Origin: Escherichia coli
GTDB lineage: Bacteria > Pseudomonadota > Gammaproteobacteria > Enterobacterales > Enterobacteriaceae
Length of the DNA stretch: 64,000 bases
Reading direction: 5' to 3' (one strand)
Assembly: GCF_003790525.1 (NCBI RefSeq)
Contig: NZ_CP033635.1
Shown: piece after piece, positions 12,158 to 24,626 of the stretch
Layout: the number at the start of each line of letters is the position of its first letter
Numbering within the stretch: the first letter of the stretch is position 1
The notes under the pieces: model-generated
What the model saw: only the letters and a program-made list of their open reading frames with translations
What the model was told of the DNA's origin: nothing
Database searches by the model: none
Program-made: the position numbers and the translations under genes

Positions 12158-12322
12158 ATGGCAAAGCCGATCATCACGCTCAATGGCCTAAAAATCGTCA
12201 TTATGTTGGGAATGCTGGTCATTATTCTCTGCGGTATCCGTTTTGCCGCCGAGATCATCGTGCCGTTTATTCTCGCATTATTTATTGCTGTTATATATAA
12301 CTTATTTCGCTTAACTAATTGA
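12158..12322 (+). pseudogene. tqsA: 5' stub of AI-2 exporter gene tqsA. The first ~46 codons are intact, then the frame runs into inserted DNA and stops (…[13 protein letters not shown]).
   Basis: [45 protein letters not shown] matches the TqsA N-terminus. The sequence diverges after GCTGTTAT at 12294. Confidence 0.85.
12286..12294. repeat. attL core: TGCTGTTAT shared with attR
   Basis: The same 9-mer is the last tqsA-matching sequence at both junctions (12286-12294 and 23720-23728). Confidence 0.55.
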
Positions 12323-12365
12323 TTTAATTAAATAATTTGCACTACAAAAAGTGCCAAAAATCGCA

Positions 12366-12390
12366 AATTAACTACACCATTAACTACACC
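12366..12390 (+). repeat. Tandem TTAACTACACC x2 (AATTAACTACACCATTAACTACACC), putative integrase arm-type sites, left arm
   Basis: The identical 25-mer recurs in the same orientation at 23567-23591, next to the int start codon. Confidence 0.55.
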
Positions 12391-13466
12391 GTTCGGCGCA
12401 CTGTATGAAACAACGTGGAACAAATAGACACAAGCGGCAGGCTATACCGTTATCATTTTTCAGCTATCCGTCATGAAGCTGGTGGATGATCACGGATAAC
12501 CAGGCATCTACAGCGCCTTAAAAAGCTGAACCCGACAAACATTTCTGCTTATCGGGTCCGATCGCTCTTTCTACTCGTGGCAGATGAGTTTACTAGGAAG
12601 GGGGGAACATTGTATCAGGCTATCCCCTTTCTGTGCTGATTCGGCTGGTGAATGATCTACTTGGGGCACTACACTTTTCGGATAGTGCGGGTATCCGGTT
12701 TTCTGCCTCATCGAATTTTAAGCCTTCTGACGGCCTGTATATCATTTCCTGTGGAGTTGCCGCCCTGATAGCGAATACTGCGGCAGCATGTGATTTACCC
12801 CCCGTTCTGTTGATGTTTGATGTGGCTGGTTGATGTGCTGCCATGTTTTCCGCCAATGGTGGAAAAGCCCACCAGCGCAACGCAGGACGCATAAAACCAT
12901 TGCGATGACTCTGGACGCAAAACCACGTTTAACGATGTTTTGCACTGAACCAGAATACTGTTCGTTTTTGTCTCGATGTCCGTACGTATTACGTCCGCAC
13001 CTAATCCGGCATCATGCCCACCAGCGTAACGCATTTTTTTAATTTCGTGGCTGTGCGTCCACCAGCTACGCCGGAATGGGGTATTCCGTTTCAACGGAAC
13101 AGGTATGACGAACATAATCGCACCTTCTCCCGAAAACGGTGCGACCTGCATCATCGAAATGGTGATTCAGCTACTCGGCGATTTTCACCATTCAGAATCT
13201 GGCGGGTGAGTTATCCAGCTTCCACCAATGGGGGATTCTGGAACAATCAACGGGTTACGCCTTATCAGCAAAAAAGCACATCAACTGTAAAGGAAATCGT
13301 TATGGTTGCTGGTGGGCTGCGTCACCATCATGGTGATGATGCTGTCCAGTCAGCCGGAACGGTTGAACAGGGTGGCTATGGGTCACTCTGTTGTGCGTTA
13401 TTTGCGTGATCCTGGTACGGGGTGACTATCTTTCAGATAGTCGGTTGCCTGGTTACACGAAAAAAT

Positions 13467-13766
13467 TTACTTCCTGCGTTTATCCTGCTTTGTATGCCCG
13501 TGCTGAATGCCCCGCAGTGGATCTTCTTTTTTCAGGTCGATCCCCATGTCCGTTAGTGTTTTTGTGGCGGCGGTTCTTATGGCACAAATCAGGTCTCTTT
13601 CCGGTTCCCGGGTTATGGTTGCCTTCCGGATGCATGCCGTTCGTCGTTCCGTTACATACTGACGCGCTTCATCACTTGCCGCCTGTTTCAGTAACTCACC
13701 CCAGCGATTAGCCGCCCGTCGCCATAAACCTTTCGCTTCCAGTTCTTCCGCTTTGTCATCATGCAC
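13467..13766 (-). CDS. PerC-family (Pch-like) putative transcriptional activator, ~100 aa from the MVHDD Met
   Basis: MVHDDKAEELEAKGLWRRAANRWGELL... matches the PerC-family N-terminal signature as I recall it. A paralogue lies at 17352-17624. Confidence 0.55.
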   Translation of the reverse strand: MHDDKAEELEAKGLWRRAANRWGELLKQAASDEARQYVTERRTACIRKATITREPERDLICAIRTAATKTLTDMGIDLKKEDPLRGIQHGHTKQDKRRK

Positions 13767-13883
13767 CATAAGCATAATCCCATTGATACCTGTTAACTCT
13801 GAATGGTTGGTTTCTGTTCTTTTGATAATTTCCCGCATAGCTTATTGTATGACAGTACTGTCCCACAATAAGGAGTTGCACGC

Positions 13884-21941: not shown

Positions 21942-22315
21942 TATTGCCCCCTTTCGTTTCTTAAAGAGTTATTTCGTGTTCTATTGCGTTGGGATGTGTC
22001 TGATTGTGTCAGGGTGATTCAGAGTTGGCAAATGTTGGTGGCGGGTATTTTACAGAAACGGGGTGATTTTAATAAAAATCATTTTAATTCAGTATTATGC
22101 AAAGGCATAAAATCTCGTTTTATGCCTTTTTTCTCACTATTTAAAGCGTTATTCGCTAATGTATAAAAAACCAGTTGAGCATTAAAAATCAGCAACTTAT
22201 AAATCTGTATACTTTTTGACCTCTTGTTCGTGGTTGTTTCACGTTGTTGTGTATTGTTGCACGTTGTATCTGTGCACTTATCCAGTATGCGCATACTGAA
22301 AAAACACGAAAAAAA

Positions 22316-23566
22316 TTATTTTCTTCTGGCTACTGGTAGCGTGGTTACGTTTTCATGTGCTCCCGCCAGTATCTCCAACCGCTCCACCCACATATCCAGC
22401 GCATTGCGTTTCGCATCCAGATAACGGGAATGATTATAAACTCGCTGCATTCCTGGCATCTGGTGGCCTGTAAGCTGCTCCACGACGTGAGGATCCACGC
22501 CTAAATCGTTCAGCATCGTTGTAAAGGTGCGCCGGATGTCATGCAGTGACCATTGAGGGTGTTTTAGCCTCCTGTGCGCTAATCTGCCGTACTGCGATAC
22601 GCTGGCCTCCTGTTTCACTTCCCCCAGTAATAAGCCCGTGTGCCTGTTCTGCTCCACCAGCCGCGTGACGAACGGCAGGATCGCTTCCGGTATGGGCCGG
22701 AATATTGCGACCTTCGTTTTGCTGTGCTCCTTCGGAACGGTCCAGAGCATTTCCGTGAAATCCCACTCCCCGATCTCCGATAACCTCAGTTCTACCGTCC
22801 TGGCTCCGAAGACAATCAGGAGGCGGATTAGTGCGACGTAGTAAGGGGAAAATATTTTTTTGTCCAGTGCCTGCAATAATTCGCCCAGTTCTTTGGTGCT
22901 TAAGACACGTTCGCTTATATCCGGTTTTTTCCCAACGTCCGCCACGTTCAGATCGTCCAGAACGTTGCTGATTGCATAGCGCCGCCTCCGGCAAAACTTA
23001 AGCGCCTGTTTGCACGCCTGTAGCACGAATCCGGCAGTAACAGGCGTTCGCTTTGCCACCCGATCAAAACAGGCCAGCCAGTGCCGTAGCTCGCATTTAT
23101 CCAGCGGCATAGCACCAATGTGCTGTATTACGTGATTATTAAGTCGCCTTTTCAGGGCGATATAATCCACGCGGTTTTCCTTTACGTAAGACTCAAGCCA
23201 GTAGGTGAGCGCATCTCCAACCGTTACAGGCTTTAACGCTTCCTGCATGGTGTAATTCATCTCATGACGTGGATTTTTCCCCTCAGCCAGCCATGCGCGA
23301 CACTGGGCGGCTTTTTCCCTGGCTGATTTCAGGCTCAGATCAGGATAATTTCCCAGCTTAATACGTTCCGGTCGTGTCTCTCTTCCCGTTCCGGCCCTGT
23401 AAGTGAAATACCAGGTTAAAAGGCCGCTGGTTGAATGCCTGACGCTCAGATTTCCACCGTCATTAAGAAAGGCTGTTTTTTGGGCGGGTGTGCCGTTGAT
23501 TTTCCTTAGCTGTGTATCGCTCAGCTTGTTAAGTGCTCTGGTCATAATTTTGAATCCGGTCATCAC
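22316..23566 (-). CDS. int: P4-family tyrosine integrase (probable start at MTRALNKLSD, ~23545)
   Basis: N-terminal arm-binding domain (KLSD..L…GG.L.V…G…W.FRY), C-terminal catalytic residues (…HDIRRT……GHQMPGMQRVYNHS). Adjacent to attR. Confidence 0.9.
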   Translation of the reverse strand: MMTGFKIMTRALNKLSDTQLRKINGTPAQKTAFLNDGGNLSVRHSTSGLLTWYFTYRAGTGRETRPERIKLGNYPDLSLKSAREKAAQCRAWLAEGKNPRHEMNYTMQEALKPVTVGDALTYWLESYVKENRVDYIALKRRLNNHVIQHIGAMPLDKCELRHWLACFDRVAKRTPVTAGFVLQACKQALKFCRRRRYAISNVLDDLNVADVGKKPDISERVLSTKELGELLQALDKKIFSPYYVALIRLLIVFGARTVELRLSEIGEWDFTEMLWTVPKEHSKTKVAIFRPIPEAILPFVTRLVEQNRHTGLLLGEVKQEASVSQYGRLAHRRLKHPQWSLHDIRRTFTTMLNDLGVDPHVVEQLTGHQMPGMQRVYNHSRYLDAKRNALDMWVERLEILAGAHENVTTLPVARRK

Positions 23567-23591
23567 AATTAACTACACCATTAACTACACC
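23567..23591 (+). repeat. Tandem TTAACTACACC x2 arm-type site, right arm
   Basis: Identical to 12366-12390. Lies at the int start codon, so Int may regulate its own promoter here. Confidence 0.55.
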
Positions 23592-23719
23592 GATCGTTGC
23601 ACAAAGGGCTACAACGTGAAACAAGCTGGAACAAGAAAAATCACAAATTTGTTTATAATCAAAAACATAATGCACAACCTGAAACATTATGAAACGGCAA
23701 AAAACACTAATTGATAAAG

Positions 23720-23728
23720 TGCTGTTAT
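23720..23728. repeat. attR core: TGCTGTTAT
   Basis: Homology to tqsA resumes exactly here. Confidence 0.55.
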
Positions 23729-24626
23729 TCTTAACCCGCTGGTGCAACACATGGTCCGCTGGCGAGTGCCGCGTGTACTGGCGGTGTCGATTTTGATGAC
23801 CATCATCGTGATGGCGATGGTGTTGCTGTTAGCTTATCTGGGTTCCGCGCTCAACGAGTTGACGCGGACGTTACCGCAATATCGCAACTCTATTATGACG
23901 CCGCTGCAAGCGATTGAACCGTTGTTGCAACGCGTAGGGATTGATGTCTCAGTTGACCAACTGGCGCATTACATTGATCCGAACGCGGCAATGACGTTGC
24001 TCACCAACTTATTGACGCAGTTATCTAATGCCATGTCATCAATCTTTTTATTGCTGCTGACGGTGCTGTTTATGTTGCTCGAAGTGCCACAATTGCCCGG
24101 AAAATTTCAGCAAATGATGGTGCGTCCGGTTGAAGGGATGGCGGCGATTCAGCGTGCGATTGACAGTGTGTCTCATTATCTGGTGCTGAAAACAGCCATC
24201 AGCATCATCACCGGCCTGGTCGCCTGGGCGATGCTCGCCGCACTCGATGTTCGCTTCGCTTTTGTCTGGGGATTGCTGGCCTTTGCGCTTAATTACATCC
24301 CTAATATTGGTTCAGTTCTCGCGGCAATCCCCCCTATCGCTCAGGTACTGGTGTTTAATGGCTTCTACGAAGCGTTGCTGGTGCTGGCGGGATATCTGCT
24401 AATTAATCTGGTCTTCGGCAATATTCTGGAGCCGCGCATCATGGGACGTGGGCTGGGGCTTTCCACATTGGTGGTATTTTTGTCGTTGATTTTTTGGGGA
24501 TGGTTGTTAGGACCGGTGGGTATGCTGCTTTCCGTGCCGTTAACAATTATTGTCAAAATTGCGCTTGAACAAACAACGGGAGGTCAAAGCATCGCCGTTC
24601 TGTTAAGCGATCTCAACAAAGAGTGA
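23721..24626 (+). pseudogene. tqsA: 3' fragment of the AI-2 exporter gene tqsA (residues ~44-344), separated from its 5' end by the satellite
   Basis: …[28 protein letters not shown]… continues the TqsA sequence through to the normal C-terminus. Only a GTG at 23742 is available as an internal start. Confidence 0.85.

Follow-up and report, generated by a model that had tools for sequence, protein, structure and literature searches.

A tqsA-resident island of Escherichia coli and its kinship with the phage satellite EcCICFT073

The closest described relatives of the element reported here are Gram-negative phage-inducible chromosomal islands (PICIs). For one of these, EcCICFT073, helper-dependent induction, packaging, high-frequency transfer and interference have been shown experimentally (PMC6092414; PMC6739421). 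AlpA is the activator of the EcCICFT073 island cycle and the island carries two functional cos sites (PMC6092414), one of which is specifically recognised by a complex of RppA with the small terminase subunit, TerS (PMC6739421). Two further islands, EcCI042 (11 kb) and EcCIK1516 (11.4 kb), have tqsA as their attachment (att) gene, with the core ATAACAGCA (Table S1 of Fillol-Salom et al. 2018; PMC6092414). Here we describe an insert that splits tqsA in a window of 64,000 nt from contig NZ_CP033635.1 (E. coli assembly GCF_003790525.1; all coordinates are positions in this window). The insert occupies 12295-23728, which is 11,434 bp counted with one copy of the att core, and is very probably an EcCICFT073-type Gram-negative PICI that belongs with the tqsA-resident EcCI042 and EcCIK1516. 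The assignment is made because gene order, the identities of the core proteins, the att core and its target gene, and the packaging and replication modules all match. Sequences were compared for EcCI042, and the Table S1 entry alone for EcCIK1516.

Kinship with described islands and integration into tqsA

The insert and EcCICFT073 share the same order of genes and sites: integrase (int), alpA, a divergent pair, an icd-like gene, a DUF4222 gene, the replicase, the replication origin (ori), ssb, perC, the capsid and decoration genes, cos, rpp, cos and a last gene. Identities between the encoded proteins are 94% for the integrase, 95% for AlpA, 97.5% for the single-stranded DNA-binding protein SSB, 95% for the capsid protein, 96% for the decoration protein and 96% for Rpp, and hardly any difference is seen in the attP arms or in either cosB region. 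The two islands differ in location, with EcCICFT073 integrated between ycfD (roxA) and phoQ at the core AAATATGTCC, and ~33 bp at the centre of attP differ between them. EcCI042, whose position within tqsA of E. coli 042 was confirmed directly, also has the same gene order (integrase 93%, capsid protein 96%, decoration protein 96%, Rpp 96%, RepA-type replicase 63%); ~70% of the window island's DNA aligns with it, at 89% identity. Relative to EcCI042, the window island has another set of small genes between icd and the DUF4222 gene, as well as ~2 kb of accessory DNA at its distal end, which includes a second perC.

An earlier reading made from the letters alone (the sequence-only reading) had proposed a phage satellite, and the comparison with known PICIs agrees with it. 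Its further suggestions, that tqsA might be an uncatalogued attB and that the gene combination might be new, are overtaken by the literature. The gene is listed with the same core in Table S1 of PMC6092414. Bobay et al. 2013 (PMC3603311) also name it as a gene that prophages disrupt on integration, and Mageeney et al. 2020 (PMC7192596) count it as a candidate for 'regulated gene integrity'. The gene combination has the order of EcCICFT073, and a capsid gene is present in 21 of 29 reference Gram-negative PICIs (Mageeney et al. 2023; PMC10111431).

The sequence features by which Gram-negative PICIs are recognised (Fillol-Salom et al. 2018) were found in the insert. Such islands span ~8-15 kb between direct repeats at a specific site, and here 11,434 bp lie between repeats of TGCTGTTAT. 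They use sites that are occupied by PICIs and not by ordinary prophages; among 5,426 complete E. coli genomes, 246 (~4.5%) carry the island's attR-tqsA 3′ junction, and these are all but seven of the 253 in which the tqsA junction is broken. Int stands at one end, followed by alpA, and transcription is nearly unidirectional, all recognised island genes lying on the minus strand save one small divergent pair and one accessory open reading frame (ORF). A pri/rep-type gene has an iteron origin immediately 3′ of it, with a replicase of another allelic type than that of EcCICFT073, and genes for tail, lysis, portal and large terminase are missing. The hallmarks of cos hijacking by Rpp (Fillol-Salom et al. 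2019) are likewise present, namely an Rpp with a TerS-like DNA-binding domain and its four key residues and two sites that combine lambda-like cosQ/cosN with a non-phage cosB.

The integration itself is precise. When 12158-12294 and 23729-24626 are joined, a stop-free ORF of 1,035 nt (344 aa) results, equal in length to tqsA of the K-12 derivative DH5a and differing from it by 20 nt and 3 aa. The same 9-mer, TGCTGTTAT, is found at both junctions (12286-12294 and 23720-23728), and the published core ATAACAGCA is its reverse complement. In complete E. coli genomes, annotated and intact tqsA matched a 300-nt in-silico empty site at identities of up to 100%, and the site was uninterrupted in 5,169 of the 5,422 complete genomes that had a match to it; from these matches the junction is precise and no chance repeat. 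The sequence-only reading was thus right that an insert of ~11.4 kb splits tqsA between two copies of one 9-mer, and its expectation that the joined ORF would equal that of K-12 was borne out for the frame and the 344-aa length, not for sequence identity. In the integrated state, the 5′ fragment runs from its 45 native codons through nine island codons to a stop and the 3′ fragment is preceded by in-frame stops; tqsA is inactivated while the island is integrated. G+C content is 49.1% in the insert and 50.5% in the flanks. An Rfam scan of 11500-25000 (E<=0.1) and a tRNA scan of the whole window gave no matches, so the att site is not a tRNA or other RNA gene.

Near both ends of the island lies a 26-nt repeat, AATTAACTACACCATTAACTACACCG on the attL side (a tandem 12/13-mer) and AATTAACTACACC on the attR side. 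Both copies are conserved in EcCICFT073 and are candidate arm-type binding sites of the integrase. AATTAACTACACCATTAACTACACCG is the reverse complement of the 'att site core' given for another island, EcCIDI14, in Table S1 of PMC6092414. The repeat more probably serves the integrase as an arm-type site than as the core of the crossover, so the published boundaries of EcCIDI14 may be slightly off.

The nearest relatives are the islands of E. coli CM2, PKF11 and PKF4: their alignments cover 97-98% of the query (for PKF4, 95%), identity is 99.1-99.3%, and the tqsA junctions are the same where these fall within the record. In structure, the window island departs from that of CM2 at one place only, where 186 nt of the window (20593-20778) stand in place of 502 nt of the CM2 locus (9995-10496); the 186 nt form part of the gene for a 75-aa protein, and the 502 nt hold two other small protein genes. 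When IMG/VR was searched for exact matches to the predicted attP junction (GATAAAGTGCTGTTATATATAAC), one contig of 11,098 nt was returned; it starts exactly at the att core and has a terminal overlap of 119 nt. Given this overlap, the contig is circular, with a length of ~10,979 nt. It is collinear with the island, at 85-97% identity in blocks, and spans the attP junction without any tqsA sequence. A relative of the island thus appears to excise at the predicted core, the evidence concerning this relative and not the copy in the window.

Integrases at the three sites used by these islands (tqsA, roxA-phoQ and allC-allE) are 89-97% identical to one another. The attP arms are conserved across the types of integrase and site, and ~33 bp at the attP centre differ. 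In an alignment of seven sequences, residues 56-57, 129, 133, 174 and 199-200 separate four tqsA integrases from three others; five of the separating residues lie in or beside the core-binding domain, and shared ancestry could also account for the pattern.

The rpp gene, the cos sites and a proposed cycle

The 144-aa gene that stands beside cos had been read from the sequence as a Nu1-like terS. Its product matches Pfam Nu1 below threshold only, matches the RppC structure PDB 6hlk with E=4e-32 and is 96% identical to RppA (c1503) of EcCICFT073. In RppA, R21 and T22 serve DNA recognition, L51 contacts TerS and F121 mediates dimerisation (PMC6739421), and R21, T22, L51 and F121 are all conserved in the window protein. 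Judged by these matches, the gene is rpp, encoding a redirecting phage packaging protein, and not a small terminase gene. Rpp is not a terminase subunit and binds the TerS of the helper (PMC6739421). RefSeq labels the gene 'hypothetical protein' in CM2, 042 and CFT073, the three inspected islands that carry rpp. At the position of rpp, related islands of O55:H7 TB182A (locus 2606-3148) and 2015C-3905 (locus 2934-3476) have a 180-aa 'terminase small subunit'; the packaging-redirection module is evidently exchangeable within the island family.

Two 78-nt arms, 91% complementary to each other and each with a cosQ/cosN-like segment, flank rpp. Both cosN-like 12-mers read GGGCGTCGACCT, a single G-to-T change from the lambda cohesive end GGGCGGCGACCT, which is the cosN of lambda, PhiR5_1, EcCICFT073 and EcCI042 alike. 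At the distal site the 12-mer is followed by a cosB-like region that extends up to 14775 and contains three ACCGGACAT motifs, which resemble repeated protein-binding elements. The cosB regions of the window island are unlike that of lambda and nearly identical to those at the two cos sites of EcCICFT073 and EcCI042. No phage with the G-to-T cosN variant was found, the closest phage cos (PhiR5_1, 94.5%) having the lambda base; the other genome checked, which had a 100% match, turned out to hold another PICI, and no candidate helper emerged. The sequence on the cosQ side tends to agree between the two copies of an island, as it does in the window island and in EcCI042, not in EcCICFT073, and to differ between islands. 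This cosQ/cosN pattern suggests that the inverted copies undergo gene conversion or are matched to a particular helper.

The island lacks portal, protease, large terminase, tail and lysis genes and therefore cannot spread alone; its helper dependence and mobility are predicted from homology. Integration can be read directly from the junctions: the tyrosine integrase of the island recombined the attP core with the identical 9-mer in tqsA. By analogy with EcCICFT073 (PMC6092414; PMC6739421), the rest of the cycle may be pictured as follows. Lytic growth of a lambdoid helper phage would induce alpA, AlpA would switch on the island genes, and the integrase would then excise the island precisely and restore tqsA. 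The RepA-type initiator/helicase would replicate the island from the iteron origin into concatemers. A heterocomplex of Rpp with the helper's TerS would ignore the phage cosB and recognise that of the island, after which the helper's large terminase subunit, TerL, would cut the lambda-like cosN and fill helper-made capsids and tails with island DNA at a cost to the phage.

Gene content of the island and its surroundings

The features of the locus are collected in Table 1. The gene set that the sequence-only reading had put forward stands for the integrase beside attR, alpA, the iterons, ssb, the lambda E/D-like capsid genes and the cos sites; the supposed primase/rep gene encodes no primase but a helicase of the RepA family that has an AAA_25 domain, and 'terS' is rpp. 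Its statement that tail, portal, protease and large terminase genes are missing agrees with Pfam, PHROG and NCBIfam scans of all ORFs, which detected no portal, protease, large terminase, tail or lysis gene in the insert, and RefSeq annotation of the 99% identical CM2 island likewise lacks structural and lysis genes of these kinds. At the putative origin, 7 of the 13 matches to AAGTGAG in the window fall inside 188 bp. Iterons 3′ of the replicase gene are the published layout of a PICI origin (PMC6092414). Within the divergent pair, a weak match (PHROG 228, E=7e-6) points to an Arc-like identity for the gene at 21105-21299. A 308-aa ORF at 20774-21700 and several other long ORFs are spurious, overlapping real small genes that are annotated in CM2, and an ORF at 22079-22294 that had been considered as alpA has no family match.

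Table 1. Coordinates of the split gene, the attachment sites and the features of the island
Feature	Position	Strand	Details
tqsA 5′ fragment	12158-12294	+	137 nt, 45 native codons
attL copy of the 9-bp att core TGCTGTTAT	12286-12294	no strand	same core, as ATAACAGCA, in Table S1 of PMC6092414
26-nt repeat AATTAACTACACCATTAACTACACCG, attL side	12366-12391	+	tandem 12/13-mer; conserved in EcCICFT073
Variable distal accessory DNA, ~1 kb	12436-13466	no strand	no recognisable gene
Second PerC-family regulator gene (accessory)	13467-13769	-	Pfam PF06069 E=8e-23; annotated in CM2
Hypothetical 96-aa protein (accessory)	13884-14174	+	no family match
Conserved 93-aa PICI protein	14277-14558	-	PHROG 1561; 78% to last EcCICFT073 gene
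Distal cos site, cosQ/cosN-like	14592-14669	+	12-mer GGGCGTCGACCT at 14623-14634
rpp, RppA-type redirecting phage packaging protein, 144 aa	14838-15272	-	directly downstream of proximal cos
Proximal cos site, inverted relative to distal	15327-15404	-	12-mer at 15362-15373; directly upstream of rpp
Head decoration protein homolog, lambda gpD family	15503-15838	-	Pfam PF02924 E=4e-17; 96% to c1500
Major capsid protein homolog, lambda gpE family	15850-16905	-	Pfam PF03864 E=2e-49; 95% to c1499
Conserved 68-aa protein, upstream of capsid gene	16905-17111	-	PHROG 3255
PerC-family regulator gene	17352-17624	-	Pfam PF06069 E=5e-39
ssb, single-stranded DNA-binding protein	17635-18045	-	Pfam PF00436; 97.5% identical to EcCICFT073 SSB
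Two small conserved hypothetical genes, 80 aa and 107 aa	18042-18611	-	
Putative replication origin	18659-18863	no strand	two AAGTGAG-type iteron sets around AT-rich stretch, immediately 3′ of repA
Replication initiator/helicase, RepA family	18858-20264	-	AAA_25, E=9e-43
DUF4222 protein	20261-20548	-	
75-aa hypothetical gene	20554-20781	-	
Icd-like gene	20774-20971	-	NCBIfam
Divergent pair: 64-aa ribbon-helix-helix Arc/HicB-like protein and 41-aa protein	21105-21428	+	
alpA	21753-21941	-	Pfam PF05930 E=5e-18; 95% identical to EcCICFT073 AlpA
Tyrosine integrase	22316-23545	-	Arm-DNA-bind_3 and catalytic domain
26-nt repeat AATTAACTACACC, second copy, attR side	23567-23592	+	conserved in EcCICFT073
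attR copy of the 9-bp att core TGCTGTTAT	23720-23728	no strand	sequence match
tqsA 3′ fragment	23729-24626	+	remainder of gene

The ~2 kb of distal accessory DNA comprises the second perC, the 96-aa ORF and a geneless stretch of ~1 kb. Within that stretch (12436-13466) no protein-family, Rfam or defence-system match was found and its ORFs are unconvincing; it is covered over at least 80% of its length in 3 of 5,426 genomes (CM2, PKF11 and PKF4), and pieces of it occur elsewhere. PADLOC, applied to nine uncharacterised ORFs and the second perC, identified no known defence system in the accessory regions, and the Icd-like gene was the sole assignment that NCBIfam contributed. The two PerC-family genes of the window island (13467-13769 and 17352-17624) compare with one each in EcCICFT073 and EcCI042, and the product of the second is 49% identical to EcCICFT073 PerC over 78 aa. 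PerC is listed among the accessory genes in Table S1 of Fillol-Salom et al. 2018 (PMC6092414), and perC-like genes of other PICIs have been reported either as repressors of the LEE pathogenicity island or as having no effect on it (PMC11773190).

On the right, 23304-64000 is collinear core chromosome, 99.99% identical to CM2 from pntAB to gstA. In the left flank are ydgD and mdtIJ, and its ORFs form a pattern that fits core genes. Within rsxC, at 58082-58503, BLAST hits of the window against the CM2 chromosome at self-offset positions reveal internal tandem repeats of ~96 nt with 90-91% identity.

Competing interpretations and significance

The PICI explanation has its limits. The replicase of EcCICFT073 is of the primase type and that of the window island of the RepA-helicase type, such that only the N-terminal 126 aa align, at 47%. 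A homolog of c1501 is present in EcCICFT073 and EcCI042 and missing from the window island. There is no helper prophage in the 64-kb window. The substitution in both copies of GGGCGTCGACCT is found neither in the closest phage cos (PhiR5_1) nor in lambda or EcCICFT073, and compatibility with a given helper is therefore unproven. Induction, excision, replication, packaging and interference, moreover, are attributed to the window island by analogy, on the strength of the EcCICFT073 experiments. Nothing in the sequence contradicts the PICI explanation.

Could the insert instead be a capsid-forming PICI (cf-PICI), or an intermediate that makes its own shell and takes other parts from a helper? Like cf-PICIs such as EcCIEDL933, it is a satellite with its own capsid protein gene. 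From island to island the capsid and decoration proteins are 95-96% identical, and they are far removed from their phage counterparts: the capsid protein shares 42.6% identity with lambda gpE and no more than 47% with any phage record in the collection searched. This conservation and distance imply selection for some function. However, cf-PICIs encode a full set of head and packaging genes (portal, protease, connectors, TerS and TerL/HNH), whereas the window island has only capsid and decoration homologs together with Rpp, and so lacks the portal, protease/scaffold, head-tail connector and large-terminase/HNH genes that define cf-PICIs (10.1101/2022.09.08.507074). In EcCICFT073, deletion of c1499 or c1500 changed neither transfer nor interference (PMC6092414), and the capsids into which EcCICFT073 is packaged are of phage size (PMC6092414; PMC6739421). 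We therefore regard a cf-PICI as highly unlikely.

The lambda-family gpE-like and gpD-like genes and the lambda-like cos sites would also fit a decayed lambdoid prophage that has lost its tail, portal, terminase and lysis genes. Decay is difficult to reconcile with genes that are all intact and with two precise att sites, and from end to end the genes follow the order of a satellite validated by experiment. Islands of this 11-kb architecture are found at three different positions in the chromosome, and a circular contig of 11 kb has it too. Furthermore, the capsid protein, at no more than 47% identity to any phage capsid, is 95% identical among islands, and AlpA regulation and the rpp gene are specific to satellites. 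A prophage remnant is accordingly extremely improbable. Next to no credence can be given to a P4-like satellite, an idea prompted by the 'P4-type' integrase and favoured by its Arm-DNA-bind_3 domain, the AlpA/Vis-like regulator and the Icd-like gene, since Pfam and PHROG scans found no homologs of Sid, Psu, Delta or the alpha primase(-helicase), the cos sites are of the lambda and not the P2/P4 type, and the gene order is that of EcCICFT073, which its authors set apart from P4 (PMC6092414).

An EcCICFT073-type PICI in tqsA is an element of a kind that is already known: the island type, the tqsA site and the exact 9-bp core were published in 2018 and the packaging mechanism in 2019. What the locus contributes is a correction of annotation, in that the gene beside cos is to be read as rpp rather than as a small terminase gene, and a reminder that tqsA is inactivated in strains with tqsA-resident islands. 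It also provides an example for two questions, namely what role the capsid and decoration genes of satellites play and how integrases that are >90% identical choose three sites. Taken jointly, it is unlikely, if less so than the alternatives above, that the capsid and decoration proteins have an unrecognised function with a natural helper, for example by joining or replacing its shell, or that restoration of TqsA by excision has a physiological role. If the former were true, co-assembly or replacement would make this island family intermediate between classical PICIs and cf-PICIs; if the latter, restoration of TqsA on helper induction would couple satellite induction to export of the quorum signal AI-2 (autoinducer-2), a case of 'regulated gene integrity'.

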